Assembly (NCBI GenBank): GCA_003551155.1
Contig: PUMA01000181.1
Coordinates: forward strand, 800-64,799
Origin: Desulfonatronospira sp.
Lineage (GTDB): Bacteria > Desulfobacterota > Desulfovibrionia > Desulfovibrionales > Desulfonatronovibrionaceae
Reading direction: 5' to 3'
Length of the DNA: 64,000 bases
The translations under genes were made by a program, and so were the position numbers. Shown here one piece after another: positions 2,567 through 48,288 of the stretch. Below the pieces are notes generated by a model. That model was not told the origin of the DNA. It saw only the letters and a list, made by a program, of their open reading frames with translations, and ran no database searches. Position 1 is the stretch's first letter; each line of letters begins with the position of its first letter.

Positions 2567-3058
2567 TTATGCCCTGGTCAGTTCTTTTATCTTGTTTACC
2601 ACATGGGGCAGGGCCTCCTGCACCTCCCTGCTCAGGCCTTCCTGCATTTTTTCCGGAATATGGGCGGCCCTGACCACAATTATGCTCAACCTGATATCAG
2701 TGGCCTCCTGGAGTTCCTTGAGCAGGTTGGTAGTGGGGAACTGATGCATGGAGAAATCAGCGATTTTCTTGGGGTCCACCTCATGGATATCTATTTCTTT
2801 GACCTGACCGGGGTAGAGATCTTCATCAGTGGTGATATCGACAATTATTACCCTCTGGGGATGCCTGTCGCTGAGGATAAGGTCAAACAAAAGAGGTCTG
2901 ATGGATGTGCCTGCGTCTATGAGAGTCACATCCGGACCAGGTCCGTTCTCTTCCTGCAACTTACTGATAACCATGGGTCCGAGCCCGTCATCCCCATAAA
3001 GGGTATTGCCGCATCCGAAAACCACCACCCTGGAATTGAACATCCTGGACCAGTCCAT
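2567..3058 (-). CDS. Hydrogenase maturation protease
   Basis: GCGNTLYGDDGLGP, DAGT, SMHQ motifs; directly downstream of the hydrogenase large subunit. Confidence 0.9.
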   Translation of the reverse strand: MDWSRMFNSRVVVFGCGNTLYGDDGLGPMVISKLQEENGPGPDVTLIDAGTSIRPLLFDLILSDRHPQRVIIVDITTDEDLYPGQVKEIDIHEVDPKKIADFSMHQFPTTNLLKELQEATDIRLSIIVVRAAHIPEKMQEGLSREVQEALPHVVNKIKELTRA

Positions 3059-3154
3059 AACCGGCGATTAACTCCCTGCGTCAAAAAATTAAGCCGTCTC
3101 CACCAAAAGGGTAGAGACGGCTCCTTATAAACAATTTATCGAGTTCTGTCTAAC

Positions 3155-4603
3155 CTATTTGCCCATGGTCTCCAAAACATTGCCAGAGGCATCCAAAATG
3201 CTCACCTCTACGTTCAGACCGCCGTCCAGGCGGTGAGTAGCACAGCTCATTCACGGGTCGTAGGCGCGTATGGCCATCTCCACCCGGTTCAAAAGCCCCT
3301 GATCGTAGTTTCCGTCCTTGATCACAGCCTTGGCCGCCTGCCTGACAGAGAGGTTCATGGGTGCATTGTTGTGCGTGGTGCCCACGATAAGATTGGCCAT
3401 GGTCACAAAACCGTTGTCATCGGTCTTGTAGTGATGGATCAGTGTACCCCTGGCAGCCTCGACACATCCGACCCCTTCACCGGCCCTGGGCTGGATGTCT
3501 TTGCACCTGATTTCGCGTCCGGTGATCTCCGGATCATTCAGGAGCTCCTCGGCCCGCTCGCAGGCCTGGACCAGTTCGATCAGCCTGGCCCAGTGGTACA
3601 GAAGGGTCAGATGTGTGGGCCGGCCGAATTCCTTGCGGAAAATGTCCAGTTCTTCCTGGGCCATGGGGGTGGCCATTTTGTCGCAGACATTTATGCGCGC
3701 CAGGGTGTTGGCCCGGTATACGCCCACTGGGTCGTTCTCGTCCAGCTTGAGGGCTCCCCATTTCCTGGCGTAGGGGAATTTCATATAGGACCACGGTTCG
3801 GTATGCTCTCCGATATAATTCACGTATTCGGAATACTTGAACTGGTCGAATTCTCCGTTCTGGTCCATGAGCCTGAGTTCGCCGTCGTACAGCTCCAAAG
3901 CGCCGTCCGAGGGACGAACAGTGCCCAGGTAGCCGGAAGGAAATACTCCCAGGACCTTGACTGCGTCCAGATACTTGGGAAAGACCTCTTCCCGGGCGAA
4001 CTTGATGGTGAACAGACTGAACTCCTTGAGTTCCTGGATGCCTTCCAGGATCTCCCTGCGTTCATCTTCTTTCAAGGGTTTGGAAAATCCCCCCACCACC
4101 CCGGCTATGGGATGAATCACCTTGCCGGCGAATTTTTCCAGCATCATCTGGCCCTTGTAGCGCATATGCACCACTTTCTTGGCCAGTTCCGGGTTCGCTC
4201 CGACAATGCCCACAACGTTGCGCACGGAATAGTCCGCATCCGGTCCCAGGACGAAATCCGGGGCAGCCAGAAAGTAAAAGTGCAGGATTTTGTCCGGGAT
4301 ATAGGCCATCATCTGGCACAATTCCCTCAGTTTTCTACCCGTAGGGGGCAGTTCCAGGCCCAGACACTCGTCTGCAGCCTTGTTGGCAGCCAGGTGGTGC
4401 TGCCAGGGACAGATCCCGCATATACGGGTTACTATCCTGGACACCTCCTCCACCGGCCGGCCCAGCACAAACTGTTCAAACCCGCGCAGAGAAAGAACGT
4501 GCAGCCTGGCGTCTGCTACATTTCCGGAATCATCCAGATGTATGGCCACGCTGGCGTGCCCCTCAATGCGGGTTATAGGAGCTATATTCAGTGTCTTACC
4601 CAT
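3155..4603 (-). CDS. mvhA: Mvh-type (group 3c) [NiFeSe] hydrogenase large subunit, selenoprotein, 482 aa with UGA read-through
   Basis: TRIEGH and RICGIC (L1 motif). The ORF 'stop' TGA at 3251-3253 continues in frame as AYDP-U-MSCATH-RLDGGLNVEVSILDASGNVLETMGK-TAG(3155-3157), i.e. the L2 motif plus a cleavable C-terminal tail. Confidence 0.93.
3218..3234 (-). promoter_or_regulatory. SECIS-like hairpin of mvhA
   Basis: ACCGCC-TGGAC-GGCGGT, perfect 6-bp stem starting 16 nt after the UGA. Confidence 0.8.
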
Positions 4604-4605
4604 AT

Positions 4606-5544
4606 CTACCTCCTGACCGGTCTTTTCAAAACGCCGTGGGCCCCTGAAAAACGGGCCAGGTACCCCCGGCGGTCTGGCATCTTGTTCGGATCAAAACCCA
4701 CCGAAGCCAATGCTCCCATGTAGTCCACCAGGGGCTTGGCGCCTTTTCTGACGGGGCCGTAGCATCCTCTGCACGGAACCCGGGCGGCAATACACCTGGG
4801 TGCCCCCTTGTGTCCGCCGCAACCGACCCCGGTCACCGGGCCCAGGCAGAGCAGACCCTGCTCCAGCAGGCAGCGCATCTCATCCAGGGGTCTGTCCGGA
4901 TCATATTCCGGGGAAGCCAGCATGCGCTTTATGTCTGACAGCCCCTTTTTGCTTTCCCTGATGGTAGGGCAGGCGTCGCACACGGACTTCTCCGGCATCC
5001 TGTATTCGGTTTTGCCTTCCAGGAGGGCCAGCACGGCCCCGGTAATCCAGTCCGGATGAGGTGGGCAGCCAGGCAGATACAGGTCGACATTGACCAGCTC
5101 ATCCAGGGCATAACACTGATCCAGCAGGGGCGGAATGTGCTCCGTGGGGTAATCCGCAGGATCGGTGGTGGGTGAATCCTTGTAATAGAACTGCTTCAGG
5201 TCTTCGTCGGAATACATGTTGATCATTGCCGGAATACCACCGTCAGTGGCGCATGTCCCAAGGGCGATGAGAATCTGGCATTTTTTACGCATTTCCAGAA
5301 GCACCTCCCTGTGCTCTTCGTTGCGCACGCCTCCGGAAACAATGCCCACCACAGCTTCCGGGATGCTCAGCTCCTTTTCCTCACCGGTCTGTCCGAAATA
5401 CTTCTTGTCCAGAATGACCGGGATGTGCACGAATTCCAGGTTGTTGACCAGAAGATCCACCAGGACATCTCCCACGTTGAGTATGGCGATTTCACATCCG
5501 GCACAGGCGTTAAGCCATTCTTCGGCTACAGTTACTTTAGTCAT
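4606..5544 (-). CDS. mvhG: Mvh-type hydrogenase small subunit
   Basis: WLNACAGCE, ALGTCATDGG, YLPGCPP, CLGPVT, CRGCYGP Fe-S motifs; upstream of mvhA. Confidence 0.92.
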   Translation of the reverse strand: MTKVTVAEEWLNACAGCEIAILNVGDVLVDLLVNNLEFVHIPVILDKKYFGQTGEEKELSIPEAVVGIVSGGVRNEEHREVLLEMRKKCQILIALGTCATDGGIPAMINMYSDEDLKQFYYKDSPTTDPADYPTEHIPPLLDQCYALDELVNVDLYLPGCPPHPDWITGAVLALLEGKTEYRMPEKSVCDACPTIRESKKGLSDIKRMLASPEYDPDRPLDEMRCLLEQGLLCLGPVTGVGCGGHKGAPRCIAARVPCRGCYGPVRKGAKPLVDYMGALASVGFDPNKMPDRRGYLARFSGAHGVLKRPVRR

Positions 5545-5567
5545 ATAAGTACCTCCATTAAGGACGA

Positions 5568-6020
5568 TTAGGCCCGGGCTGCCTGTCGGACGTTAACTGC
5601 CCCCTGGCGGGCCTTAAGCGGATTAGGCCCAAGAGACCTGATCTTTTCCGTAAACTCGGTGACCAGTTTGGCGAACCTGGGAGCCTCTGCCGAAGATACC
5701 CAGTCAATCCTGAACCTTTCCGGGTCGATTCCCAGATCCTCCAGCACCAGTTTTACGGCCTCTCCCCGGGCGTATGCCTTGTGATTACCTTCCAGGTAAT
5801 GACATTCACCCAGGTGTCAGCCCAGAACCAGTACGCCGTCGGCACCCTTTTCCAGGGCCTCCACAACCAGGTTGGGATGCACCATTCCCGAACACATTAC
5901 TCTGATGGCGCGCATGTTGGGTGGATACTGCAGCCTGGATACTCCGGCCAGATCCGCTCCTGCATAAGCGCACCAGTTACAGAGAAATCCGATAATGACG
6001 GGTTCTTTATTTTCAGCCAT
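5568..6020 (-). CDS. mvhD: MvhD [2Fe-2S] subunit, selenoprotein, 150 aa with UGA read-through
   Basis: FLCNWCAYAGAD...RVMCSG...GADGVLVLG-U(TGA 5817-5819)-HLGECHYLEGN...GIDPERFRIDWVSSAEAPRF...TAA(5568-5570); U sits in the first Cys position of the GCHxGxCHY motif. Confidence 0.93.
5784..5800 (-). promoter_or_regulatory. SECIS-like hairpin of mvhD
   Basis: ATTACC-TGGAA-GGTAAT, perfect 6-bp stem starting 16 nt after the UGA; same geometry as the mvhA hairpin. Confidence 0.8.
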
Positions 6021-6037
6021 GAAACCTTCTCCTTTTT

Positions 6038-9000
6038 TTAAACATTCTCCAGAGCCGCATGCACCTGGGCTCTGAGCTGCTCATTGGTGAAGCCGTGCAC
6101 GAAAACGCCCTGCTTGGGACAGGTGGCCTCACAGATGCCGCAACCCTTGCACAGGGCTTTGTTGGTCTCGATTTTCTTGTGCATGGCCTCGTCACGCTCG
6201 TAATCTGTCAGGGTTATGGCCCCATAAGGACACGTGTCCACGCAGATGGCGCAGCCGTCACAATTTTCAGTAACAAAGGACTTGATGGAATCCAGGGGCA
6301 TGACCGCCCTTGAAAGTATGGTGGAGGCCCTGGAAACGGCTGCCTGGGCCTGGGCGATGCATTCATCCACTGGCTTGGGGTAATGGCACAACCCGGCCAG
6401 AAACATGCCGTCCACGCTCATGTCCACTGGGCGCAGCTTGGCGTGGGCTTCCTGCAGGAAGCCATCACTGTTCAGCCCGCACTTATAGAGCTCAACAAGG
6501 TTCTTATGGTCAGCCGGAACAACAGCAGAGGCCAGAACCAGATAGTCCGGCCTGATTTCAACATCCCGGAAAAGCACGTGATCGCGGGCCACAACCAACA
6601 GATCATCTCCGTCCCTGGACACCCTGGGCTTATTTTCCAGATCGTACTGAATAAAAATTACTCCCATTTCCCGGGCTTTCTGGTATAAATCCTCCCGGGC
6701 ACCGTATGTTCGTATATCGCGGTAAAGCACGTATACCGGCATTCTGGGACTGGCTTTTTTCAGCTCAATGGCCGAATGCACGGTATGGGTGCAGCAGATC
6801 CGACTGCAGTACGGACGTTCAGGCTCCCGGGACCCGACACACTGGATGAACACGGCTCCTTTGGCCTTTTCCAGGGCCGGCCTGTGCTCAGAGATTTCCC
6901 TGTCAAACTCAAAGTGGGTGAACACCCGGTCGTCCTGACCGTATAGATATTCCTGGGGCTTATATTCCTTGCCTCCGGTGCAGACCACGGCAATGCCGTA
7001 CTTGATTGCCTTTCTTTCTCCATTTACCTCGATTTCGCTGACAAAATCACCCACAGAGCCCTTGTTGGTCTTAAGCTCGGCATTTTTGTAGACTTTGATT
7101 CTGGAATGGTTTTCCACCCTGGCAATGAGATTCTCCAGATAAGGACGGATCTCTTCCCCCCGCCAGGTTGTGACCAGGCTCCAGGCATTGCCGCCGAGCC
7201 TGTCCGACTTTTCCAGGAGATAGGTTTCATAGCCCTGGTCTGCCAGCCCAAGGGCAGTGACCATGCCGGAAATTCCACCGCCCACCACCAGTGCACTCTG
7301 ATTCACATTGACCGACAAATGTTCCAGGGGCTCCAGCATAGAAGCCTTGACCACTGACATGCGCAGCTGGTCCCTGGCCTTTTCAAGAGCCTTTTCCGGC
7401 TCTTTGCCGTGAACCCAGCTGTTCTGGTTGCGGATATTGGCCATCTCAAACAGGTATTCATTGAGCCCGGAATCCTTCATGGTTTCCCTGAAGAGAGGCT
7501 CGTGGGTCCTGGGTGTACAAGCGGCCACAACAACCCGGTTCAGATTGTGTTCCTGGATCTTTTCCTTGATCATGACCTGGGTATCCTGGGAACAGGAAAA
7601 GAGATTGTTTTCCACAAAGACCACATTGGGCAGCCCCTTGGCGTATTCCACCAGCTCCTTAACATCTATGGTCCCGGCAATGTTGATGCCGCAGGAACAG
7701 ACGAAGACACCTACCCGCGGCTCTTCCCGGGCAACATCTCTTTCAGGCGGGAAGGTTCTCTCATGGGTCAAAGAGCCCCTCTGGTTGATAAGGGCTATGG
7801 AGGCCGAAGCTGCTGCTGAAGAAGCCTCGGTAACTGACTGGGGGATATCCTTTGGACTCTGAAAACATCCGCTGGCGTAAATCCCGGGCACATTGGTGGC
7901 CGCAGGAGCAAAACTGGAGCTCTGGGCGAAATGGTACTTGTCCAGTTCCACACCCAGGGCTCTGGCCAGCTCCATGGAGCCCTTGGTCACTTCCAGGCCC
8001 ACGGACAGAACAAGCATATCAAAGTCTTCCTTAACTCTCTCCCCGGTCTGGTCGTTGAAGTATTCCACGACAACTCCCCCCTTCATTTCCGGGATAAGCC
8101 GTGTGGATGCGGCTCTGGATAAAACGGATCCCTTTTTCCCTGGCCTGCTCATAGTATTTGTCAAACTCTTTGCCGTGGGTGCGGATGTCCATGTAGAAAA
8201 TCGCCTGGTCCATATCCCCGGTGGTATGCTCGGAAGTAACCAGGGCCTGCTTGATGGCGTACATGCAGCATACAGAGGAACAGTATCCATTGTCGCACTT
8301 GTTGATGTTTCTGGAGCCCACGCACTGCAGCCAGGCGATTTTCCTGGGCTCCTTTTCGTCCGAGGGACGGACCAGGTGACCCATGCACGGACCATTGGAG
8401 GAAAGAAGCCTCTCATATTCCATGCTGGTAACCACGTCCTTGAACTGGGAATAGGCATAGGTGTCGAAAACCGAAGGATCAAAAGGCTTGAACCCGGGAG
8501 TCAGGATGACTGAGCCTACGTTAATCTCCTTGATCTCATCATCGAATTCCTGGTCCAGATCAATGGCCCCGGTGGGGCAGTACTTTTCACAGGCCCTGCA
8601 TTTGCCCTTGCCCTTGACTCCCTTGTTGCCGCCCTTGACAAAGAAGATACAGGTTTTCTTTTCAATGACTTACTTCAAAGGCACTGTCTGGCCGTACTTG
8701 ATATAGGCCGACTTGCGCTTGTCCAGGCCTTCGTTGAATTCATCCGGAACCTTTTTGGGACATTTTTCAGCACAGAGATTACAGGCTATGCATTTGTCCA
8801 TGTCCACAATACGCGGCTTCTGGCGAACCCTGACAGAGAAGTTGCCTTCCTGTCCGCTGATGCCCTCCACCTCGGCCAGAGTGAGAAGCTCAATATTTAA
8901 GTGCCGACCGCACTCAACCAGTTTGGGCGAGATGATTCACATGGCACAGTCATTCGTGGGAAAAGTCTTGTCCAGCTGGGCCATGGCCCCGCCGATACCG

Positions 9001-9116
9001 GATGTCATTTCCACCAGGTACACATAGTATCCTGCGTCAGCCAGATCCAGGGCAGATTGAATGCCGGCTATTCCTCCGCCGACAACCATGACTGCGCCAA
9101 CTTTTTCTTGTGACAT
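6038..9116 (-). pseudogene. hdrA: Large (~1025 aa if repaired) HdrA-like flavoprotein with two FAD modules; Sec codon plus one nonsense codon and one frameshift
   Basis: ATG at 9116 gives [18 protein letters not shown]...[12 protein letters not shown](TGA 8937-8939)-IISPKL. In-frame TAA at 8670-8672 after VPLK, with the same frame continuing VIEKKTC...CRACEKYCPTGAI...QCVGSR...CSSVCC. Frame change at the C6 run 8076-8081 into the 6038 ORF, which carries a second VVGGGISG and QCVGSR module and the C-terminal ferredoxin. Confidence 0.85.
8898..8916 (-). promoter_or_regulatory. SECIS-like hairpin of hdrA
   Basis: TGAGTGC-GGTCG-GCACTTA, 7-bp stem with one G-U pair, starting 20 nt after the UGA. 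Confidence 0.6.
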
Positions 9117-17494: not shown

Positions 17495-17717
17495 GGCTTA
17501 CTCCTTATATGATAAACTCTGGCCAACCCGCGGCCCTTTCAGAGACACTGAGCAAATCCGTTGCCATGCCATGAGCAGGCTGAGGATTTCATGCAGTGCA
17601 CGGAAAAGACCCGTGAGCCGGAGAACAACCAAGTCTGCTGGTCTGAATGGGCTTAGTTAAGGAAAAGACATTTTACCGGAGAGGAAATGGAGGAGGCAAG
17701 GATGGCTGAAAACTATA

Positions 17718-17898
17718 TTACCCCGGCAGGCCGTGTGGTAACTTATCTTGAACCTCGTTTATACAGGTGGGCGCCAAAGCAGCTTCTTCAGGCTTCCCCG
17801 CGACGTCAGGGGCATGCACACCAAAGCTGCGCAGCGGCTCCCTTGAGGTTACTGTTGGCTCAAAATAAATTATCTCCATCACGCACCTGCCAGGAATT
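17718..17898 (-). ncRNA. ssrS: 6S RNA
   Basis: Canonical position between zapA and rny; ends pair (TTCCTGGCAGG / CCTGCCGGGG); contains TTGAGCCAA, AAGGGAGCC, GGGAAGCCTGAA, CCACCTG and GGTTCAA segments typical of deltaproteobacterial 6S; ~180 nt. Confidence 0.85.
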
Positions 17899-17924
17899 AT
17901 TTAAAGCTATTTTTTACTGATAGA

Positions 17925-20646: not shown

Positions 20647-22059
<1,413 letters not shown>

Positions 22060-22083
22060 TTATTTGCCCCCTTTTATCATTTT

Positions 22084-22953
22084 TTATCTTAATGCTTCAG
22101 CGCCGCCGACTATGTCCATCAGCTCAGAAGTGATCGCCGCCTGCCTGGCCTTGTTGTATGCCAGGGTCAGCTGGTCAACCATTTCGTCGCAGTTCCTGGT
22201 GGCGTTGTCCATGGCCGTCATTCTGGCTGCATGCTCGCTGCAGGATGTGTCCAGCAGCCCTCTGTACACCTGGACCTTGATGTATCTGGGCAGAATCTCG
22301 GCCAGCAGGCCTTCCACTGACGGCTCAAACAGATATTCGCTTTGCGGGCCGCCTTCGACTGGTGCTTCCGCCTGGACCACCGGCAGGACCTGTGCAGCCT
22401 GCGGCACCTGTCTGACCATGGAAACAAATTCGGAATAGACTATGTGCACCTCATCCATTTCCTGATCCAGATATCTGTTGATCACCTTGGTGCCGATTTC
22501 ATTGGCCAGCTGAAAGTCAAAGCTGCCCATGACCTCCCGATAGGAATCAGCAATATTCTGCTTCCTTCTTCGGAAAAAATCATAGCCTTTTTTCCCAACA
22601 CAGATCAGCTGGACCTCTTTGCCCTCAGCCGCCTTGTTCCGGGCCAGAGCGTTACACTTGCTGATCAGATTGCTGTTGAAAGCGCCGCAAAGTCCTTTGT
22701 CCGATGTTATCAGAATTATGCCTACATTTTTGATCTCCTCCCGCTTTTCCAGAAGTGGGTGGATACCGGGGTCAACCCGGGCGGAAAGGTCGGAAAGGAT
22801 CTCGAAGTATTTCTCGGCATATGGCCTGAAGCGTTCAATGCGGTCCTGGGCACCGCGCAGTTTGGCCGAGGCCCCCATGTTCATGGCCTTGGTGATCTGC
22901 TTGGTTTTTTTGACCGCGCCGATCTTTCTCTGTATCTCCCTGAATGATGCCAT
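22084..22953 (-). CDS. atpG: F1F0 ATP synthase gamma subunit
   Basis: KTKQITKAM, DKGLCGAFN, SEHAARMTAM, NKARQAAITSEL. Confidence 0.97.
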   Translation of the reverse strand: MASFREIQRKIGAVKKTKQITKAMNMGASAKLRGAQDRIERFRPYAEKYFEILSDLSARVDPGIHPLLEKREEIKNVGIILITSDKGLCGAFNSNLISKCNALARNKAAEGKEVQLICVGKKGYDFFRRRKQNIADSYREVMGSFDFQLANEIGTKVINRYLDQEMDEVHIVYSEFVSMVRQVPQAAQVLPVVQAEAPVEGGPQSEYLFEPSVEGLLAEILPRYIKVQVYRGLLDTSCSEHAARMTAMDNATRNCDEMVDQLTLAYNKARQAAITSELMDIVGGAEALR

Positions 22954-22967
22954 GTGCTGCTCCCGCT

Positions 22968-24476
22968 TTATGCTTTAAAGGTCTTTTTGAACTCGTCCAT
23001 GGCAGCAATAATTTCTTTTTCCAGTTCGCTGCTGAAATCTCCTGTTTCCTTGATTTCATTGAGTATGTTGGGCTTCTGGCTTCTGAAGTATTCCAGCAGT
23101 TCAGATTCGAATCTGCTCACAGCTTCTACAGGCAGATCATCCAGGTACCCTTTGGCGCCGCAGAACTGGGAGATAACCTGTTCCTCCGCGGGCATGGGCA
23201 TGTATTGGGGCTGTTTTAACAGTTCAACCAGCCTTTCTCCCCTGACCAGGCGTTTCTGGGTGGCGGCATCCAGTTCGGATCCGAACTGAGCAAATGCTGC
23301 CAGCTCTCTGTACTGGGCCAGGTCCAGGCGCAGGGTTCCGGCCACCTTCTTCACCGCCTTGATCTGGGCTGCGCCACCCACCCTGGATACGGAAAGACCC
23401 ACGTTGATGGCCGGTCTGACACCGGCATAGAAAAGCCCTGGTTCCAGATATATCTGGCCGTCAGTAATGGAAATTACGTTGGTAGGGATGTAGGCGGATA
23501 CGTCTCCGGCCTGGGTTTCAATTATGGGCAGTGCAGTAAGGGATCCTCCGCCGAGCTTGTCACCCATCTTGGCCGCCCTTTCCAGGAGCCTGGAATGCAG
23601 GTAAAAAACGTCTCCAGGATAGGCCTCGCGACCGGGAGGGCGCCTCAAGAGCAGGGACATCTGCCGGTAGGCCTGGGCGTGCTTGGAAAGGTCGTCATAC
23701 ATGATCAGGGCATGTTCACCCTTGTCCCGGAAATATTCCCCCATGGTGCACCCGGCATATGCAGCGATATACTGCAGGGGAGCCGGTTCTGAAGCCGTGG
23801 CTGAGATAACCGTGGTATAGTCCATGGCTCCGTATTTTTTCAAGGTATCCACCACCTGGGCCACTGTGGATTTCTTCTGACCGATGGCCACGTAAATGCA
23901 GTGGATATCAGTTTCTCTCTGGGCCAGGATTGCGTCAATGCAGATGGCGGTCTTGCCTATCTGGCGGTCACCGATGATGAGCTCGCGCTGGCCCCGGCCT
24001 ACAGGGGTCATGGCGTCAATGGCCTTCAGACCGGTATACATGGGCTCATTCACCGGCTTGCGCACCACAACACCCGGAGCTATGACCTCCACATTCCTGG
24101 TCTGCTTGGTTTCGATGGGCCCCAGACCGTCAAGGGGATTGCCCAGAGGGTCTATTACCCGGCCCTGAACCGCCTCTCCCACCGGAACCGAGGCTATGCG
24201 TCCGGTCCTTTTGACCAGATCCCCCTCCTTGATGTGCACGTCCTCACCAAGCAAGGCGCAGCCCACATTGTCTTCATCCAGGTTCAAAGCCAGGCCCATG
24301 ACCCCCCCAGGGAACTCCAGCATCTCCAGGGACTGGGCATTTTCCACCCCATACACCCGGGCTATGCCATCGCCCACTGACAGGACCACACCGGTTTCGC
24401 TCATTTCTACGCGTTTTTCGTAATCCTTGATCTGACCTTCAATAATCTGGCTGATTTCTTCTGCTTTTATTTGCAT
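22968..24476 (-). CDS. atpA: F1F0 ATP synthase alpha subunit
   Basis: [31 protein letters not shown]; start MQIKAEE. Confidence 0.98.
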
Positions 24477-24480
24477 AGCC

Positions 24481-25032
24481 CTACTCACCCCTTTTGATGT
24501 TTTCTTTCAAAATTTGCAGTTGCGCCCTTATGCTGGCATCCAGAACCTTATCACCGACCTTTAATACCAGTCCGCCCACAATTTCCGGATCAACCTTATA
24601 ATCCAGAACCACTTGCAGGCCGGCCTGTTTTTCCAGTTTGTCCACTATATCCTGCCTGACATTCTCGGCTAGCTTAATGGCGGTCACCACTTCTCCACGT
24701 AGAACTCCCTGGTAATCATCCAGAAGCTTGGCATAATAAACCTGGATCTCGGCTAGCTGATCCAGTCTTCCCTTATCCGCTAGCAGATAACAAAAATTGG
24801 CTACCACTTTGTTGGGCTTTATTTTGCCCAGAAGCTGTTTTACGACCTCTTTCTTCTCGTTCACGGAAATGACCGGATTGCGGAAAATCCTGATCAAATC
24901 CGGATAGCCCTCCAGGACATCAACGAACCTGGCCAAATCATCACCGTAGGCCTTGAGCTCTTTCTCGCCCTGCTTCTGTGCCAGGGCGAAAAGGGCGCGG
25001 GCGTATCTTCTGGCAACTATACTTCCTATCAA
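24481..25032 (-). CDS. atpH: F1F0 ATP synthase delta subunit
   Basis: [25 protein letters not shown]. Confidence 0.94.
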
Positions 25033-25592
25033 TTTAGCACCACCCTTGTTAGACTGTCATTAATAAGAGTCTTGTGGTCCTCGGCCTTCAGTTTTTTCTT
25101 GATCATGGCCTCGGTAGCCTCAGCCACCTTGTCCGCCAGCTCGGCCCGGATTTCCTGCAAGGCCTGCTTGGCCTCCTGCTGGGCTGAAACTTGAGCCTGC
25201 TCCTTGATCTGAGCAGCCTGGGCTTCGGCCTTGGCAATGATCTGCTTTTTCAGGTTTTCGCCCTGAGCTTTTGCCTGTTCAAGAATCTGTGCCCTTTCCT
25301 GCTCCAGATTAGCTATGCTCTTCTGTACATTCTCAAGTTTTTGCTCAGCTTCCTTTTTCCTGGAGCCCAGATCCTTGAGTTCGGTTTCGATTTCACTGCT
25401 GCGGCTGGGAAAAAATTCAAACAGCTTATATCCACCTGCATAGTAGAGAATGGTCAAGAAGATGATAAAATTGATCACCCTCCAGATCTGGTCCCTGGCA
25501 TCCTCGGGCAGATTGAAGGGATCTGCAATATTGAAAATGGCAGCAGCCAGCAGAACGACCCCCAAAATCAGCAACTTTGTTTTTGTGTTCAC
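25029..25592 (-). CDS. atpF: F0 subunit b
   Basis: N-terminal hydrophobic segments followed by a long coiled coil; operon position. Confidence 0.88.
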   Translation of the reverse strand: MNTKTKLLILGVVLLAAAIFNIADPFNLPEDARDQIWRVINFIIFLTILYYAGGYKLFEFFPSRSSEIETELKDLGSRKKEAEQKLENVQKSIANLEQERAQILEQAKAQGENLKKQIIAKAEAQAAQIKEQAQVSAQQEAKQALQEIRAELADKVAEATEAMIKKKLKAEDHKTLINDSLTRVVLN

Positions 25593-25614
25593 CGCTTGAG
25601 CCTCCCTTTAATTT

Positions 25615-26037
25615 TTAGGCTTTGCCCAGAATCTTCTCTGCTGCCAGCCCCGCAAATTTATCCACCTGTTTCTTAAGCGCTGCCAGTGCGCTTTCCTTCT
25701 CTGACTTTGCCTTTTCCCGGGCCGTCTGAAGTATGCCCATTGCTTCCTGGGAAGCAGACTGAACTATCTGTTTTTCCTCCTCAAAGCCTTCCCCTTTCTT
25801 TTCCTGCCTTATTTCCTGAGCTTTGAGCCGGGCCTGCTCCAGTTCCTGCTCATAAGATCTGAGCTTTTCCTCAGCGCTGGCGTTGAAACTCTCGATATCT
25901 TCCACCTTTTGGTGCATAATCTCAGCCCGCCTGCGCAGCATTCCTCTTATGGGCTTGTACAGAATAAGATTGAGCAGCAACAGGACAATAAAAAAATTGA
26001 CCAGCTGAATAAAAAAGGTGATGTTTAGTTCAATCAT
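25615..26037 (-). CDS. F0 subunit b' (second b paralog)
   Basis: MIELNITFFIQLVNF...LYKPI; first gene of the atp operon (atpB/E are not in the window). Confidence 0.88.
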   Translation of the reverse strand: MIELNITFFIQLVNFFIVLLLLNLILYKPIRGMLRRRAEIMHQKVEDIESFNASAEEKLRSYEQELEQARLKAQEIRQEKKGEGFEEEKQIVQSASQEAMGILQTAREKAKSEKESALAALKKQVDKFAGLAAEKILGKA

Positions 26038-26520
26038 AGGCCCTCCCGAGAATGTGAATTTTTGTTCAAAGTTGGCTTTGCCGGATAAATTTCTATCTGT
26101 CCTTAGTCAATTTGCCATCCTGTGTCAAAGCCTTTTTCCTGTTTTTCTGGGAACAGAAAAAATATTGATACGCTATAACAAGTCTGTTTTATAGCAATTT
26201 TATTTTGTACTTTAAAAATCGGCTGTTTTATTGTTGATGATTTCGCACCAAATTTCACATATGTTTTGAAATTTTGTTCCAGAGACCATTGCAAGGCTCA
26301 TGAAGATTTGTGTCTCAGGCCCCTTTTATTCTGGGGCTCTTCGACGTATGCTTTGGAATTGTTATGGCACTATACTATATCTTTCCAGCTCCGGGGTGTT
26401 GGCAAAAGCGGCTCAAACTGTCTGAAACGAGCCCTTTTGCCAAAACCCCGGAGCTGGTATTCTGGATAAGGCTCTTAATTTTTAACTGTATATAAAATCC
26501 ACACGTTGCGTCGAGGAGCC

Positions 26521-26928: not shown

Positions 26929-28035
26929 TCAGCCCTTGAACATGAATCTGCGCATGGACACGTTCAGGACCAGGCCGACCATGATAAAGTTGACCATGGC
27001 TGAAGTCCCACCATAACTGATAAATGGCAGGGGTATGCCCACAACAGGCACAAGGCCCAGAACCATTCCCATGTTAACCAGGATCTGCCAGAAAAAATAG
27101 AAAAACACTCCGACGCACAGCAATGATCCAAACCTGTCCTTTGCTTCCTGGGAGACAATAAGGATCTGATACAGAAAAACACAGAACAATAGAAGCAGAA
27201 TCACAGAACCCGCAAATCCCCATTCTTCGCCGAATACTGCAAATGCGAAATCAGTATGTTTTTCAGGAAGAAACCGCAGCTGGCTCTGAGTACCCTCCAT
27301 GAATCCCTTGCCCCAGAATCCTCCCGAACCCACAGCGATCTGGGACTGGATCACGTGATAGCCTGAACCCAGCGGGTCCTGTGCGGGATTAATGAAGCTG
27401 AGCAGTCTGGTCTTTTGGTAGTCATGAAGAAAAAGCCATCCCAGAGGCAAAATAACGGGAACCAGGGCCAGCATAATTTTCATCAGTTTTTTGGCTATTC
27501 CGTGATACAGAACAATCCCGCCAGTTAGCAGTATGATTATAAGCCCTGATCCCAGGTCCGGCTGTTTGATTACAAGGACCGCAGGAACCATGACCATTGC
27601 AGACACTTTAAGCAGATCTCTCAATTCAAGAGGATGCTGGATCCGGGACAAAAAATGCGCAGTAAGAATCACCATGCCGATCTTGACCAGCTCGCTGGGC
27701 TGAAAACTGACAAATCCAAGACTCAGCCATCTCTGGGCACCATAAATGGGTACTCCGAAAAAATAGACCGCCAGCAGCAGCAACAGGAAGAACATGTAGA
27801 TATACCATGAAACTGCCTTGAAATGCCGGTAATCAACGAGCATGAACCCGAGCATGGCCAGAAAGCCCACTGCTCCCCAGATCAGCTGCTTACTGTAGAA
27901 TGGAGTCAGTGTGGTCCCCTCGCCGATCCGGTACGCACTGGCTGAATAAAGATTGAGTACTCCTGCGGCAAAAAGCAGGAGCACGACTCCCAGCATGGCC
28001 CAGTTGATATGCAGTATCATCTGCCTGTCGATCAT
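26929..28035 (-). CDS. rodA: Rod shape-determining protein RodA (SEDS family)
   Basis: GAQRWL, FQPSELVK, QPDLGS, FLPEKHTDF, PLPFISYGG. Confidence 0.96.
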   Translation of the reverse strand: MIDRQMILHINWAMLGVVLLLFAAGVLNLYSASAYRIGEGTTLTPFYSKQLIWGAVGFLAMLGFMLVDYRHFKAVSWYIYMFFLLLLLAVYFFGVPIYGAQRWLSLGFVSFQPSELVKIGMVILTAHFLSRIQHPLELRDLLKVSAMVMVPAVLVIKQPDLGSGLIIILLTGGIVLYHGIAKKLMKIMLALVPVILPLGWLFLHDYQKTRLLSFINPAQDPLGSGYHVIQSQIAVGSGGFWGKGFMEGTQSQLRFLPEKHTDFAFAVFGEEWGFAGSVILLLLFCVFLYQILIVSQEAKDRFGSLLCVGVFFYFFWQILVNMGMVLGLVPVVGIPLPFISYGGTSAMVNFIMVGLVLNVSMRRFMFKG

Positions 28036-29837
28036 GGATCATGTCCTGTGGTTTGTTCCTGATCCTGGGGGAACAGATAGTCAAAAACCGCCTTGACCAC
28101 AGGACCGGCTGCGGCACTGCCGGAACCTCCGTGCTCCACCAGTGCCGCTACTGCATATCTTTGACTGCCGCTGACAGCAAAGCTGATCATCCAGGCATGA
28201 TGCCTTAACCAGTAATCCACAGCCTCGGGATCATCCTCGGTATGTTCAGGCATCAGCCTTACAACCTGTGCAGTCCCGGTCTTTCCTCCGACATCAGCAC
28301 CCCTGGTGCGCAGCCTCCTGGCGGTACCGCGCTCCTTTTCCACGGTATCCAGCATGGCCTGATAAATGAATTCCCTGGTCCCGGCACTCCACGGCAGAGG
28401 CTCCGGGTCCAGCTTTTTCTCCTCCAGAAACAGGCTGGGTCTGTACAGGTGCCCTCCATTGGCTATGGCTGCAGTCAGTCTGGCCATCTGCAAAGGGGTG
28501 ACCTGGATAAATCCCTGTCCAATGGCCAGATTAAGATTGTCTCCTCCCCGCCAGGCATCATTAAATCGCTGCCTCTTCCATTCCCTGGTGGGCACCAGTC
28601 CTGCCCTTTCATGGGGCAGATCTATCCCGGTCCGCCGGCCAAAACCGCTGGCCACGGAAAAGCTGCTGATCTGATCCACGCCCAGCCTCTCCCCCAGCTG
28701 ATAAAAATAGGTGTCGCACGACTCCACCAGGGCCCGGTTCATATTCACCCGCCCATGAGAGCGCCAGCACCTGAAGACCCTGTCTCCCAGCCTGTATCTT
28801 GCGGTACACGAAACCTCTTGGCCAGGAGAAATTTCCGGGTTTTCAAGGCCCAGGGCGGCCATCAGGGGTTTGAACACTGAACCCGGGGGATATGCGTTCT
28901 GGATGCTGCGATTCTGCAGGGGATGATGCGGATTTTCCAGAAGGTTTCTCCATTGATCCCTGGAAACGCCGAAAACGAATTTGTTGTTGTCATAGCCCGG
29001 AGTGCTCACCAGAGCCAGGACCTGCCCTGTATCCGCATCCAGGACGACTACTGAACCTGTCCTGCCTTCCATTAATGAATAAATATAGGTCTGCAGCTCC
29101 AGATCAATACTCAACTGCAGATCCTTACCAGGCTGGGGGGGAGCCAGCATATATTCACGCAACACCCTTCCTGCGGCATCCACTTCAAGCTGTTTCAGCC
29201 CCCTGCTGCCCCGCAGAATCCTTTCCATGGTGTATTCAAGACCATGCTTGCCCACATTGTCTCCAAGCCGCAGCCCGGGGTCTGCAGCCAGCTCCTGCTC
29301 ACTGGCCTGAGCCACATACCCGAGAACATGGGACATCACCTCTCCCTGCAGATACCTGCGCCTTGGCTGAACAACCACTTTAACTCCGGGCCAGTAGGGA
29401 GCTTCTGTTTCCACCCTGGTCAGAAGCTCAAAGGAAAGATTGGATACCAGGATCTGATTTTCAAAGGACCGGACCATGCTCCGGCCCCGTTCGAAATCAG
29501 CCCTGAGCTCATCCAGAGACTTGCCGGTCCATTTGCTGATCTGCTTTAATGTCCGATCCATATCCGGGGTGTCCTCGCGCACCAGGGCCAGGCTGTACGA
29601 AGGCTCGTTCACAGCAAGAAGCCTGCCCTCCCGGTCCAGAAAAAGTCCCCTGGGAGCATATACATGCTGCCTGCGCTGCAGGTTTTCCTGGGCTTTCTGA
29701 AAATAAAACTCCCCCTTGTATATCTGAAGAAACCAGAGCCTGAAGGCAAGCACAAAGAAAAGAGCCGCAACCAGGACCAGGAGAAAATGAGAGGCTGGCC
29801 TGTCGCTGAAAAAGCTATTTTCCCTGAACTGGTTCAT
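28032..29837 (-). CDS. mrdA: Penicillin-binding protein 2
   Basis: PPGSVFK (SxxK), ESCD, GKTGTAQ. Confidence 0.96.
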   Translation of the reverse strand: MNQFRENSFFSDRPASHFLLVLVAALFFVLAFRLWFLQIYKGEFYFQKAQENLQRRQHVYAPRGLFLDREGRLLAVNEPSYSLALVREDTPDMDRTLKQISKWTGKSLDELRADFERGRSMVRSFENQILVSNLSFELLTRVETEAPYWPGVKVVVQPRRRYLQGEVMSHVLGYVAQASEQELAADPGLRLGDNVGKHGLEYTMERILRGSRGLKQLEVDAAGRVLREYMLAPPQPGKDLQLSIDLELQTYIYSLMEGRTGSVVVLDADTGQVLALVSTPGYDNNKFVFGVSRDQWRNLLENPHHPLQNRSIQNAYPPGSVFKPLMAALGLENPEISPGQEVSCTARYRLGDRVFRCWRSHGRVNMNRALVESCDTYFYQLGERLGVDQISSFSVASGFGRRTGIDLPHERAGLVPTREWKRQRFNDAWRGGDNLNLAIGQGFIQVTPLQMARLTAAIANGGHLYRPSLFLEEKKLDPEPLPWSAGTREFIYQAMLDTVEKERGTARRLRTRGADVGGKTGTAQVVRLMPEHTEDDPEAVDYWLRHHAWMISFAVSGSQRYAVAALVEHGGSGSAAAGPVVKAVFDYLFPQDQEQTTGHDP

Positions 29838-30291
29838 GAATCAAAAATTTCCTGTACATGTGAGAGGTGATCAGCCAGATCCCGAAATACGCTCCAAACT
29901 GGATCAGAAAAGACTCCGGTTCCATATGAACAGCAGGAGCCAGATCCTGTACAGAGGACATTATCCGGATAAGAGCTGACTTGAATCCGGCAAGAAAGAG
30001 AAAAAATACAGCGGAAAATAAAACGTTTCTGGCCTCAAAAAAAATTGCAGCCCAGTAAAACGCAGATACAAGGCCTGCATAAAAAAGCATGGCCGTGCCG
30101 AAAGCCAGAGTTCCTGTCCCCTCCTGAATTAGGATCCAGGCCAGGCACAGCCAGAAGGCCGGCTTAAGGCTTTTAACCTGCAAAAGCACCACCAGACCCG
30201 GACTGAAGAAGTCCACTCCAGGCAGGAGAAACTGCCCCCAGACGCCCAGCAGGGTGTAAACAAGCCAGAAAACCACCTGCTTAAGCTGCAA
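29815..30291 (-). CDS. mreD: MreD-like membrane protein
   Basis: Highly hydrophobic 158 aa between mreC and mrdA. Confidence 0.7.
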   Translation of the reverse strand: MQLKQVVFWLVYTLLGVWGQFLLPGVDFFSPGLVVLLQVKSLKPAFWLCLAWILIQEGTGTLAFGTAMLFYAGLVSAFYWAAIFFEARNVLFSAVFFLFLAGFKSALIRIMSSVQDLAPAVHMEPESFLIQFGAYFGIWLITSHMYRKFLIHEPVQGK

Positions 30292-30437
30292 TGAAACCCC
30301 GCATGTTTGTCCTCAGACTATTGACAGACATCTCTGCTGCTCAAGACAGGAAATGGCTGCATAAGGAGAGTCCCGCGTCCTGTGCTTTTTCTGCCCCAAA
30401 TGAACAATAATGCAGAGCCGGCAGATTGACCATGCTT

Positions 30438-32391
<1,954 letters not shown>

Positions 32392-39109: not shown

Positions 39110-39375
39110 TTTTGACCTCCTTGTTTTATACATTTTTTCTGGCACAAATAGCCCTAAACGGATAGTCATGTCAATCAGGCTGCTCTCCTTTCTCCTGCCC
39201 GGCCTGCAGGCCTTTCAGCCGGGACTTGGCAAACAGGTCCTCCTTGGGATATATTTTTCCTGGTGCAGGTTGAAAAAAACGGATCCGGCTGTCAGGATTT
39301 GGTCCGAGCCGGGCTGAACCGCACTTCATATGCCCGGACGTATTGTGAACCATAATTAAACCATACGGAAGAATT

Positions 39376-41094: not shown

Positions 41095-41898
41095 ATGGAA
41101 GACATTTATACTGACAGCAGAAACAAACTTTTTTTCATTCTGGGTCCCTGCGTCCTGGAAAACAGAGACATGGCGCTGACAGCAGCTGAACAGCTGGCGG
41201 CGATGGCTGGCAGGCTTGGCGTAACCGTGGTTTTTAAAAGTTCATTTGACAAGGCCAACCGCACTGCAAAAGACGGCTTCAGAGGCCCCGGGATGGAACA
41301 GGGCCTGCTTTGGCTGCAAGAGATCAAAAGAAGAACCGGTCTGCCTCTGATTACAGACATACATTTGCCGCAGCAGGCTCAAGCTGTGGCTGAAGTGGTG
41401 GATGTAATTCAGATCCCCGCTTTTCTGTGCCGCCAGACTGATTTGCTGGTGGCTGCAGCTGGGACTGGAAAAATTGTGAACATTAAAAAGGGTCAGTTCA
41501 TGGCCCCCTGGGATATGTCCAGTGTAGCTGAAAAGGTGGCCCGAAGCGGAAACCGGCGGATCTGGCTTACAGAACGCGGCTCCGCCTTCGGCTATAATAA
41601 CCTGGTGGTGGATTTCAAGTCCATCCCGGTCATGGCCCGTTTGGGGTATCCGGTTATAATGGACGCCACCCACTCGGTCCAGCTGCCTGGAGGTCTCGGA
41701 GCATCTTCAGGCGGAGAACGCGAATTTGTTCCGGTGCTGGCCAGGGCCGGAGTGGCTGCAGGCTGCCATGGTGTGTTCATGGAGGTGCATCCTGACCCTC
41801 AAAACGCTTTATGTGACGGTCCTAATTCCTGGCCTCTGGCTGAGACCTTTTCCCTGCTGCAAAATCTTTTAAGAATCCGACGAGCAGTGTATGCCTGA
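41095..41898 (+). CDS. kdsA: KDO8P synthase
   Basis: FKSSFDKANRT, QIPAFLCRQTD, NIKKGQF, DATHSVQ. Confidence 0.97.
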   Translation: MEDIYTDSRNKLFFILGPCVLENRDMALTAAEQLAAMAGRLGVTVVFKSSFDKANRTAKDGFRGPGMEQGLLWLQEIKRRTGLPLITDIHLPQQAQAVAEVVDVIQIPAFLCRQTDLLVAAAGTGKIVNIKKGQFMAPWDMSSVAEKVARSGNRRIWLTERGSAFGYNNLVVDFKSIPVMARLGYPVIMDATHSVQLPGGLGASSGGEREFVPVLARAGVAAGCHGVFMEVHPDPQNALCDGPNSWPLAETFSLLQNLLRIRRAVYA

Positions 41899-42427
41899 AG
41901 ACCCCAAGCGTGCTGCCCGGAACGTAAAACTGTTTATTCTGGACGTGGACGGAGTGCTTACTGACGGAGGACTGTACTATGACCATGACGGCCGTATAAG
42001 CAAAAGATTCAATGTGCAGGACGGGATGGGTCTCAAGATGGCCCAGTCTGCCGGTCTGGATGTGGCCGTGATCAGCGGTCTCGATTCCCGTGCAGTGGAA
42101 GCAAGAATAAGGGAGCTGGGCATAACCGATTATTTTCCCGGATATATCCGGAAAATGCCCTTGCTGCACAAGCTGGCTCAGGATAAAAACCTGTCTTTCT
42201 CTCAAATGGCTTATCTGGGAGATGACTGGGTGGACGCCCAGGCCATGGCCAGCGTAGGGCTGCCCATGGCCGTGGCCAATGCCCAGCCGGAAATAATCCA
42301 GCTGGCCCTCTGGACCTCCTCTGCCAATGGAGGACACGGGGCAGTGCGCCAGGCTGTGCGCTTTATTCTGCAGGCCCAGGGCAGGCTTGATGAACAGTGG
42401 GCCAAATGGATCAGTGGTCATGTATAA
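41891..42427 (+). CDS. kdsC: KDO8P phosphatase (HAD family)
   Basis: LDVDGVLTDG, FNVQDG, YLGDD. Confidence 0.93.
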   Translation: MPEDPKRAARNVKLFILDVDGVLTDGGLYYDHDGRISKRFNVQDGMGLKMAQSAGLDVAVISGLDSRAVEARIRELGITDYFPGYIRKMPLLHKLAQDKNLSFSQMAYLGDDWVDAQAMASVGLPMAVANAQPEIIQLALWTSSANGGHGAVRQAVRFILQAQGRLDEQWAKWISGHV

Positions 42428-42995
42428 AAGGCTTGCTCCTGCGGGACTCGGCCTGCTTTTGCTTGCTCTTCTGCTGAGCATGCTGCTGAGGAATACCCCC
42501 GGCCCCGGAAGAATAGGCTTTGACCCGGATATGCAGGTTGATTTAAACATCCAGGCCCTGACCCTGATACAGGGAGTTGAAGGCAGAAGCCTCTGGGAAC
42601 TCAAGGCCAGGGAGGCCGGCTTTCTGCGCAGGGAAAACCAGATCCTGCTCAATGAACCCGTTTTTACCTATTTTGGAGATAATGACGCAGATACCCTTAA
42701 GATATGGTCTTCTCAGGGCAAAGTGAGCCAGGATGATCAGGTGGTGCACATGTGGCCCGATGTCAGGGCACAGTCAGGAGAATTACACGCCAAAGCCGAC
42801 AGTGCCGTGTACATGGAAAAAGACGGCCGGATTCTGCTGGAGGATAACGTGGTTTTCTCTGGCAGGGGAATGGTGATAAGGGCTCCAAGGGCCACGATTT
42901 TCCTGGAAAAGGACATGATTGTAGCCACTGGAGGTGTAGGCACAAGTATCCCGGGATCCACTGCAGGAGATTCTGGGCGGAACAATCAACCATGA
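42420..42995 (+). CDS. lptC: LPS export protein LptC
   Basis: N-terminal TM anchor and beta-rich body; operon position; likely start MYKRL. Confidence 0.8.
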   Translation: MYKRLAPAGLGLLLLALLLSMLLRNTPGPGRIGFDPDMQVDLNIQALTLIQGVEGRSLWELKAREAGFLRRENQILLNEPVFTYFGDNDADTLKIWSSQGKVSQDDQVVHMWPDVRAQSGELHAKADSAVYMEKDGRILLEDNVVFSGRGMVIRAPRATIFLEKDMIVATGGVGTSIPGSTAGDSGRNNQP

Positions 42996-43010
42996 ACAGG
43001 CAGTAAACGT

Positions 43011-43526
43011 ATGCTACACAAGATATGCTTTCTGATCCTCACATGCACTCTGGCGGTAGTGCTTCAGCCCGCCCTGGGGGCAGGGGCCCAGGCGGGAAAA
43101 AAGGGTACTGAAATTACATCCCGGGAGATGACCTACACCGGAGAACAGAACCTGGTGGTCTTTTCCGGGGATGTCCATGTCCTGCGTCCGGATTTTGAAC
43201 TTTGGTCTGACGAGCTTCATGTCTTCCTGAAGAACGGCGCTGACCTGGAACAGAACAGCACAGGAGAGGACGAAAACATAGAAAAAATTATCGCCAGGGG
43301 CAGCGTGCGCATAAAAGGAGACGGCCGGGAGGGCCGCAGCGGTCTTCTGACCTATTTTCCGGATACCGAAACCGTACACCTGGAAGATCAGCCCAGGCTC
43401 CTGGAGAACAGAAATACTGTGGAGGGAGAAACCATAATCCTGAACCTGAGGGATAATACATCGCAGGTGCTGGGTGGAGACAGGCAAAGGGTACGGGTTA
43501 TTTTTTATCCTGACGGGGATGAATAG
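43011..43526 (+). CDS. lptA: LPS export periplasmic protein LptA/OstA
   Basis: Signal peptide, VVFSGDVHV, IIARGSV, RVRVIF. Confidence 0.88.
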   Translation: MLHKICFLILTCTLAVVLQPALGAGAQAGKKGTEITSREMTYTGEQNLVVFSGDVHVLRPDFELWSDELHVFLKNGADLEQNSTGEDENIEKIIARGSVRIKGDGREGRSGLLTYFPDTETVHLEDQPRLLENRNTVEGETIILNLRDNTSQVLGGDRQRVRVIFYPDGDE

Positions 43527-44248: not shown

Positions 44249-44263
44249 TCAGGTCAAGTCAGT

Positions 44264-48286: not shown

Positions 48287-48288
48287 TT

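Follow-up and report, generated by a model that had tools for sequence, protein, structure and literature searches.

The DNA analysed here, a stretch of 64 kb that we call the window, encodes hdrA–mvhD–mvhG–mvhA followed by a maturation protease gene, all on the minus strand, and hdrA, mvhD and mvhA each contain an in-frame TGA which, judged by comparison with homologues, is a selenocysteine (Sec) codon at a Cys position; Sec insertion itself we infer. The operon, which is from a Desulfonatronospira-like haloalkaliphilic sulfate reducer, very probably belongs to the known 'methanogen-type' selenoprotein operon class of Deltaproteobacteria. As written, only the hydrogenase genes are intact and hdrA is broken, which may mean that the complex is absent in the source strain.

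A sequence-only reading had placed the three TGA codons at 8937, 5817 and 3251, and minus-strand translation confirms them together with their motifs. The codon of hdrA (8937–8939) gives U60 in the motif NDCAMU, that of mvhD (5817–5819) lies in the motif G-U-HLGECHY (translated as VLVLG-stop-HLGECHY) and that of mvhA (3251–3253) falls at the Ni ligand in the C-terminal motif DPCxxCxxH (AYDP-stop-MSCATH). The ORF list has frames terminating at each of the three sites. At the hdrA position, TGA is present in 10 of 10 orthologues and in three paralogues, and Cys is found in L008–L011 and L016 (compared loci are given by L numbers). The mvhD position has TGA in L001–L007, L014 and L015 and Cys in L008–L010, L013 and L016, and the mvhA position has TGA in L001, L005 and L007 and Cys in L016. 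Over the three sites together, TGA is seen in L001–L007, L012, L014 and L015. Alignment with Cys-containing orthologues, for which the earlier reading had asked, shows TGC or TGT at the Sec positions in the distant homologues (L008–L011, L013 and L016), and the PDB homologues of HdrA and MvhD carry Cys at the Sec-aligned sites. For example, U60 of HdrA aligns with Cys197 of 5ODC_A, the residue corresponding to Sec197 in M. maripaludis HdrA (PMC13518236). Since TGA is kept in close orthologues and replaced by Cys in distant homologues, and since the protein sequence 3′ of each TGA is conserved among homologues, the three TGAs are beyond chance. By itself, a stop flanked by open frame in both directions was worthless as a Sec criterion; a permissive scan for such stops gave 202 stretches in the window.

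The TGAs could instead be ordinary stops, with split or decaying genes that yield only truncated products. Gene callers do split the genes at these codons, and the Sec machinery is not visible in the window: selA, selB, selD and tRNA-Sec (the last searched with ARAGORN in the window) are absent from the 64 kb and from the loci compared, so that we infer the machinery rather than see it, and SelA/SelD motif scans over the window and 17 loci gave no match. Nevertheless, we regard ordinary stops as very improbable, because TGA is maintained at three sites over lineages with 50–87% protein identity and Cys stands there elsewhere, protein conservation past each TGA is strong, and the essential CxxH Ni–Fe ligands are encoded past the mvhA TGA. 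Conserved hairpins with compensatory change and peaks of synonymous-site conservation at the TGAs also argue against this explanation; third-codon-position conservation peaks around the TGA and SECIS in hdrA and mvhD, and is among the highest in mvhA.

Regarding the SECIS elements, we took as the criterion a hairpin directly 3′ of the UGA, with its apical loop 16–37 nt away and G or U in the loop. All three UGAs are followed by a predicted hairpin of this kind, with loops that begin 22–27 nt after the UGA (GGUCG, UGGAA and UGGAC). The hdrA hairpin (8897–8917, minus strand) has an 8-bp stem, and its GGUCG loop begins 27 nt after the UGA. Over 10 sequences, 100% of its cells are paired compared with 25–44% in slid controls, and one pair switches from CG (five sequences) to UA (five sequences) via two synonymous changes. 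The mvhD element is a two-part hairpin (5765–5814, minus strand), the upper helix of which (5784–5800; AUUACC/GGUAAU, loop UGGAA) is invariant in nine sequences. Its fold has a minimum free energy of −25.4 kcal/mol (z = −4.0), which none of 200 shuffles equalled. In the lower helix, 82% of cells are paired and one pair is compensatory, and neither this helix nor the mvhA hairpin surpasses shuffle or slide controls. Covariation support amounts to one pair per element. The mvhA hairpin (3218–3234, minus strand; ACCGCC/GGCGGU, loop UGGAC) is present in four of four sequences, which are too few for covariation, and is spaced from its UGA as in mvhD; the 60-nt fold is no better than shuffles (z = −0.98). 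Rfam at gathering thresholds detects no SECIS family in the window, the sole match being 6S RNA.

The hydrogenase genes were identified by domain and structure matches, with all NCBIfam scores under the equivalog cut-offs. First, mvhD (5568–6020, minus strand) encodes a [2Fe–2S] adaptor subunit of 150 aa with Sec68, which matches Pfam FlpD (1e-54), PDB MvhD/VhuD chains (E from 1e-44 to 1e-47) and NCBIfam VhuD. The small-subunit gene mvhG (4606–5544, minus strand; 312 aa) matches Pfam Oxidored_q6 and NCBIfam VhuG (1.7e-61), and the N-terminus of its product, MTKVTVAEEWLNACAGCE, begins directly at the Cys motif, with neither an RRxF motif nor a Tat signal. The large subunit MvhA (3155–4603, minus strand; 482 aa, Sec451) carries RICGIC at 60 and DPUMSCATH at 449, and joins VhuA (residues 2–429) and VhuU (residues 434–460) in one chain, with an NCBIfam score of 475 against a cut-off of 800 bits. 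A terminator-like hairpin with a 14-bp stem and a T run lies 3′ of mvhA (3091–3123, minus strand), and beyond it is the gene of an FrhD/HycI-like hydrogenase maturation endopeptidase (2567–3058, minus strand; Pfam HycI 1.5e-20, NCBIfam hydrog_prot 4e-32). In the PDB, MvhA matches 5ODC_F with an E value of 1.5e-125, compared with 4e-39 for periplasmic NiFeSe enzymes. By its RxCGxC and DP(C/U)xxCxxH motifs, its closeness to MvhA/VhuA, the lack of a Tat signal and the presence of MvhD, the hydrogenase is assigned to the cytoplasmic Mvh/Vhu type, group 3c, and not to the periplasmic group 1 [NiFeSe] enzymes, as the earlier reading had held.

The hdrA gene (6038–9116, minus strand) encodes an HdrA homologue that would be about 1025 aa if repaired, as judged by translation, Pfam domains (Pyr_redox_2, NAD_binding_8 and Fer4) and three stretches matching 5ODC_A (E 8e-180). 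Residues 10–390 match the FAD domain, 464–637 the N-terminal domain and 883–1019 the C-terminal ferredoxin domain; the NCBIfam HdrA2/HdrA match is below cut-off. In the alignment to 5ODC_A, the C57/U60 pair, K289 (the Lys of CCMYAxK), the FAD and ferredoxin domains and the Cys clusters are all present. GxGxxG sites are found at 13 and 612, and the second domain has no NDCxxC. HdrA is accordingly predicted to be a fused HdrA dimer and not a canonical single HdrA, and its likeness to BamE is taken from a text description of that protein.

The coding frame was said to continue after each TGA. Conserved protein does follow each of them, but the hdrA frame stays open for only 88 codons past its TGA, so that hdrA has three interruptions, not one: besides the Sec-UGA there are two lesions that the earlier reading missed, a TAA and, farther along, a +1 frameshift. 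The TAA nonsense codon (8670–8672, minus strand; codon 149) is TAC (Tyr) in L001–L007, and Tyr is also found in 5ODC_A. The metagenome runs X1–X4 have T>G at 8670, with a depth of 138/138 in X1. The second lesion is a one-base insertion in a G6 homopolymer (8076–8081, C6 on the plus strand) near codon 345, which moves hdrA into the +1 frame. The closest orthologues, L004–L006, are one base shorter here and have the frame restored, and L001–L003 and L007 have in-frame length variants; X1 is one base short at 8076 (124.5/124.5 depth), and X2–X4 likewise at 8078–8079. Neither lesion is present in any of seven orthologues or in X1–X4. The reading frame of hdrA is therefore not intact in the source sequence, its translation needs two frames, and in the source contig it is called as a fragment of 676 aa (P0018). 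The TAA and the frameshift would prevent full-length HdrA from being made even with Sec insertion, and thus an intact bifurcating complex is not encoded by the sequence as it stands. Programmed recoding, by read-through of the TAA and +1 frameshifting, was considered and rejected for want of conservation; hdrA is already a recoded gene and the G run looks slippery, but both features are absent from all orthologues and metagenome populations and folding finds no hairpin 3′ of the TAA, so that the probability of this explanation is negligible.

Whether hdrA is a real recent pseudogene, which we hold to be about an even chance or slightly better, was weighed against X1, a near-identical metagenome population. 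The window differs from X1 at 37 sites in 60 kb, of which 16 are synonymous, 10 nonsynonymous coding and 9 intergenic; the ratio of synonymous to nonsynonymous changes is the pattern of natural variation. The exact MvhG sequence was matched in one metagenome contig only (SRR490150), which is no second assembly of the source genome. Alternatively, both lesions arose in sequencing or assembly or were introduced after sampling, with Sec-HdrA intact and the complex functional as in the relatives, which we consider somewhat below an even chance. The frameshift, the sole coding-region indel relative to X1, is in a homopolymer of six bases and the sole other indel is in an A7 homopolymer, and both fit sequencing error as well as slippage. 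Furthermore, hdrA is intact in every relative and in four metagenomes, mvhD, mvhG and mvhA do not differ from X1 and show no decay, and neutral decay would hardly be expected to give two disabling changes when overall divergence is 0.06%. However, elsewhere in the 60 kb no reading frame is damaged, the differences from X1 resemble natural polymorphism, and the change from TAC to TAA is a substitution, unlike homopolymer errors. The two disabling changes also fall in one gene, which is 5% of the sequence, and 7 of the 37 differences are within hdrA (binomial P = 0.0025).

In the proposed mechanism, each UGA would be read as selenocysteine, aided by the bacterial SECIS hairpin that closely follows it. 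Sec would replace the terminal Ni-ligand Cys of DPCxxCxxH in MvhA, the first Cys in GCxxGxCHY in MvhD and the second Cys of the flavin-adjacent CxxC pair in HdrA (Cys197/Sec197 in the methanogen protein). From homology, H2 would be oxidized in the cytoplasm by MvhAG, and MvhD would hand the electrons to the FAD of the fused-dimer, putatively BamE-like HdrA. There they would be divided, some going to ferredoxin and the others to a high-potential acceptor whose gene is not in the window. Bifurcation and its acceptors are thus predicted from homology. Of the earlier proposal of a bifurcating [NiFeSe] complex, the cytoplasmic type, MvhD and an HdrA homologue in the operon hold, but the intact complex is not encoded as written. 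That no hdrB or hdrC lies in the cluster, as the same reading noted, was borne out for the whole 64 kb by a CCG-domain ORF scan and by Pfam on about 50 ORFs, and the match to a canonical HdrABC–MvhAGD complex is therefore incomplete.

In this lineage, the fused-dimer Sec-HdrA and Sec-MvhDGA module could also work without canonical soluble HdrBC and pass its high-potential electrons to a partner encoded elsewhere, hdrA having been knocked out in the sequenced strain; we think this unlikely, if by no means negligible. Were it true, the intact selenium hydrogenase genes next to a disabled hdrA would mean that the hydrogenase is kept for some role independent of HdrA. In L005, membrane HdrC-like and HdrB-like genes lie just upstream of hdrA, and no such pair lies upstream of hdrA in the closer relatives L002, L003, L004 and L006. 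A membrane-anchored HdrC/HdrB-like pair of the L005 type would be a candidate partner, through which cytoplasmic H2 oxidation would be coupled to DsrC or to quinones. The high-potential acceptor of HdrA–Mvh modules lacking HdrBC is a question already recognized in the sulfate-reducer literature, and the window makes it no more testable.

The main import of these results is for annotation, as the UGA codons lead gene callers to truncate all three genes. In databases, most homologues of the present HdrA are 935–960 aa long and are missing the FAD-binding N-terminus, compared with about 1010 aa for the Cys forms. Read correctly, the genes again give a complete cytoplasmic [NiFeSe] hydrogenase. 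The broken hdrA is also a caution: metabolic reconstruction of the source genome should not presume an H2-dependent bifurcating complex unless both lesions are checked.

The operon type is not new. Desulfobacterium autotrophicum has a Sec-containing MvhA2DG clustered with a Sec-containing HdrA1 (PMC2702500), and a 2026 review presents the three-selenoprotein 'frhA–frhD–hdrA selenoprotein operon' of Deltaproteobacteria as a textbook example (PMC13188914). The present operon resembles that of D. autotrophicum HRM2 and the Deltaproteobacteria in its sulfate-reducing host, its cytoplasmic Mvh-type hydrogenase, its three selenoproteins (large subunit, MvhD and HdrA) and its bacterial-type SECIS, located within the coding sequence. 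It differs in its Desulfonatronospira-like source from soda or salt lakes, in the lack of an adjacent periplasmic HysAB and of a fourth, GlpC-like selenoprotein gene, and in the broken hdrA copy.

The subunit families are also those of Methanococcus Hdr–Vhu (HdrABC–VhuAUGD; 9SFI, 8RVU; PMC13518236) and Methanothermococcus HdrABC–MvhAGD (5ODC), with which the present system shares a presumed H2-driven flavin-based bifurcation. Methanococcus has its HdrA Sec at position 197, its hydrogenase Sec in DPUxxCxxH and MvhD as the adaptor. The suggestion that the same Sec positions are used there is borne out by alignment in the case of HdrA and by motif in that of VhuU; for VhuD, however, two Sec residues are given (PMC13188914), compared with one in the present MvhD. 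MvhA is a single chain in which VhuA and VhuU are fused, HdrA is a 1025-aa fused dimer in place of a 650-aa homodimer-forming chain, HdrB and HdrC are missing, and the SECIS lies within the ORF and not in the 3′ UTR. The periplasmic [NiFeSe] HysAB of Desulfovibrio/Desulfomicrobium (group 1) also has a Sec as Ni ligand at this place in its large subunit, but is a distant, Tat-exported family without MvhD or HdrA partners.

Lastly, we compared the operon with BamE and BamF of class II benzoyl-CoA reductase as described (bioRxiv 10.64898/2026.04.10.717634). BamE, at about 1000 aa, is described as a fused HdrA dimer, the architecture predicted for HdrA here, with an N-terminal TrxR-like domain that bears a CxxC/U pair (Cys59–Cys62, corresponding to C57–U60 here) and the Lys of CCMYAxK, and a selenoprotein MvhD-like adaptor comes next. 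In contrast, electrons would enter here through the NiFeSe hydrogenase and not BamGHI, and neither BamD (HdrBC-like) nor BamBC is present. The Sec of BamF is near the N-terminal CxxC, whereas that of the present MvhD lies in the GCxxGxC motif.

The genes hdrA (9116-6038), mvhD (6020-5568), mvhG (5544-4606) and mvhA (4603-3155) lie on the minus strand with intergenic gaps of 17, 23 and 2 nt, respectively, which places them in a single operon. A 180-nt AT-rich spacer precedes hdrA, and beyond it the genes are divergent and unrelated (rlpA-like, radical SAM). A strong terminator-like hairpin with a 14-bp stem (3123-3091, minus strand) lies 3' of mvhA and separates it from a hydrogenase maturation endopeptidase gene (3058-2567, minus strand), which is followed by lepA; the protease gene may thus be transcribed separately or depend on read-through.

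Three of the four genes contain an in-frame TGA on the minus strand, exactly where the sequence-only reading had placed them: 8939-8937 in hdrA (NDCAM-U-IISPK), 5819-5817 in mvhD (VLG-U-HLGECHY) and 3253-3251 in mvhA (YDP-U-MSCATH). The predicted Sec residues are U60 of HdrA, U68 of MvhD and U451 of MvhA. A permissive scan of the window finds 202 stops with an open frame on both sides; the pattern is common by chance, so the weight of the Sec case rests on relatives. The comparison covered 16 related loci taken from genome collections; the nearest are Desulfonatronospira MAGs with 83% nucleotide and 86-88% protein identity. TGA occupies all three sites in every orthologue covering them (L001-L007) and is also found in the more distant homologues L012, L014 and L015, while Cys codons stand at the same positions in L008-L011, L013 and L016 (Desulfobacula, Thermoplasmatota, Bathyarchaeota and others). 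This predicted Sec/Cys alternation is the classical selenoprotein signature. The 64-kb window holds no sel genes and no tRNA-Sec. According to a 2026 review, frhA-frhD-hdrA is a typical selenoprotein operon that occurs in archaea and in 'some bacteria, particularly Deltaproteobacteria', with horizontal transfer between archaea and bacteria proposed for it (PMC13188914). The kind of operon is therefore already known and the window is another instance, so its novelty had been overstated.

A SECIS-like hairpin lies 3' of each UGA; its apical loop starts 22-27 nt downstream of the codon and opens with G or UG. The hdrA hairpin has an 8-bp helix with a GGUCG loop, and 100% of the cells are paired across 10 sequences, compared with 25-44% pairing in slid controls. 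One pair of this helix is C-G in five sequences and U-A in the other five; both of the substitutions involved (GTC/GTT and TTG/TTA) are synonymous. The mvhD fold lies far above shuffles (z = -4.0), and its upper helix is invariant even among paralogues at ~50% protein identity; the lower helix shows one compensatory pair, yet it is not above controls. The mvhA hairpin has the same geometry as that of mvhD and is found in 4/4 sequences, which are too few for statistics. Among the orthologues, third-codon-position conservation is at its maximum in the TGA/SECIS region of hdrA and of mvhD, and in mvhA this region ranks among the highest. An Rfam search returned no family matching these hairpins at the gathering score.

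Read from 9116, hdrA runs into a TAA at 8672-8670 (codon 149), and its frame is then lost near 8080, with the remaining protein encoded in the +1 frame; the sequence-only reading had missed both. The gene call stored for the source contig (P0018) comprises 676 aa from the C-terminal part of HdrA. Where the window has the TAA, all seven orthologues read TAC (Tyr). In the G run at 8081-8076, the closest orthologues (L004-L006) are one base shorter, and L001-L003 and L007 show in-frame length variants. Programmed recoding is ruled out, since the lesions are not conserved. A salt-lake metagenome (X1; SRR490150 by contig name) contains a near-identical population at ~125-140x depth, from which the window differs over 60 kb by 35 substitutions and two single-base indels. 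X1 has a Tyr codon at 8670 and one base fewer at 8076, and three further metagenome runs (X2-X4) are concordant. The only other indel is in the A7 run at 39273-39279 of the adk/pyrG intergenic spacer, where the window is one base longer than X1 and an A>C difference lies at the end of the run. Of the 37 differences, 7 fall in hdrA, which makes up 5% of the sequence (P = 0.0025), and both disabling ones are among them; mvhD, mvhG and mvhA show none. Coding differences elsewhere comprise 16 synonymous and 10 nonsynonymous changes, as is typical of natural polymorphism and not of random error. The two lesions are about equally likely to be real strain mutations or assembly errors, with a slight leaning towards real mutations.

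With both lesions mended for searching, HdrA has ~1025 residues. In the alignment to HdrA of the Methanothermococcus HdrABC-MvhAGD structure (5ODC_A), residues 10-390 cover the FAD/TrxR region with its inserted ferredoxin (5ODC_A 147-511), residues 464-637 the N-terminal domain and residues 883-1019 the C-terminal ferredoxin domain; a second Rossmann-type domain begins at residue 609. This layout is that of a putative fused HdrA dimer, as recently described also for BamE of class II benzoyl-CoA reductase (bioRxiv 10.64898/2026.04.10.717634). U60 is aligned to Cys197 of 5ODC_A; the M. maripaludis structure has Sec197 at the equivalent position, where it pairs with a Cys close to the flavin (PMC13518236). 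More than 7,900 database proteins score at E <= 1e-50, which makes this a very large family. Among the matches listed, most homologues have 935-960 aa and 91-94% query coverage; gene callers have truncated these at the Sec codon, so that the FAD-binding N-terminus is missing. A few of the matches listed reach ~1010 aa, with 98-100% query coverage, and are presumably Cys forms. The large HdrA is a very common protein that is systematically mis-annotated.

For MvhA, the E value is 1.5e-125 against the MvhA chain of the Methanothermococcus structure and only 4e-39 against periplasmic [NiFeSe] large subunits. NCBIfam models place VhuA at residues 2-429 and VhuU at residues 434-460, which marks MvhA as a predicted VhuA-VhuU fusion. 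No twin-arginine signal was found in MvhG, and MvhD is a full-length FlpD/MvhD domain. By homology, the proposed cytoplasmic bifurcating [NiFeSe] complex is broadly right, except that hdrA as written is not intact.

The 64-kb window contains no hdrB/hdrC (CCG-domain) genes. The Desulfonatronospira MAGs share upstream synteny with the window and are likewise devoid of hdrBC in that upstream region. In an uncultured Desulfovibrionales MAG (L005; HdrA 83% identical), two genes (182-2757 of that locus) lie directly upstream of hdrA-mvhDGA. One product, HdrC/DsrK-like, has 583 aa and carries membrane helices at its N-terminus as well as two Cys motifs of the ferredoxin type; the other, HdrB-like, has 274 aa and two CCG domains. 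No such pair occupies that place in the window, L002, L003, L004 or L006. The L005 pair offers a starting point for tracing the missing high-potential branch.

The remaining window (20647-26037, 26929-32379 and 41095-49450) is housekeeping, with no gene tied to selenium or hydrogen metabolism: F1Fo ATP synthase atpF'FHAGD, mreBCD-pbp2-rodA, and kdsA-kdsC-lptCAB-rpoN-hpf-rapZ with mannose-type PTS components. Further genes encode an AcrB-type efflux pump with a TetR regulator, malate synthase G and glycogen synthase. A full-length 6S (SsrS) RNA gene (17716-17899, minus strand; Rfam RF00013, 101 bits) is flanked by RNase Y and glmU-like genes. Finally, a 73-nt near-perfect palindromic hairpin (26385-26457; MFE -56 kcal/mol for 111 nt, z = -9.8) sits in the spacer that separates an atpF-like gene from a bactofilin-like ORF. 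It is single copy in the window, and the word depth of its bin in X1 is ~2700 compared with ~125 elsewhere, which suggests that the element is multi-copy or widely shared.
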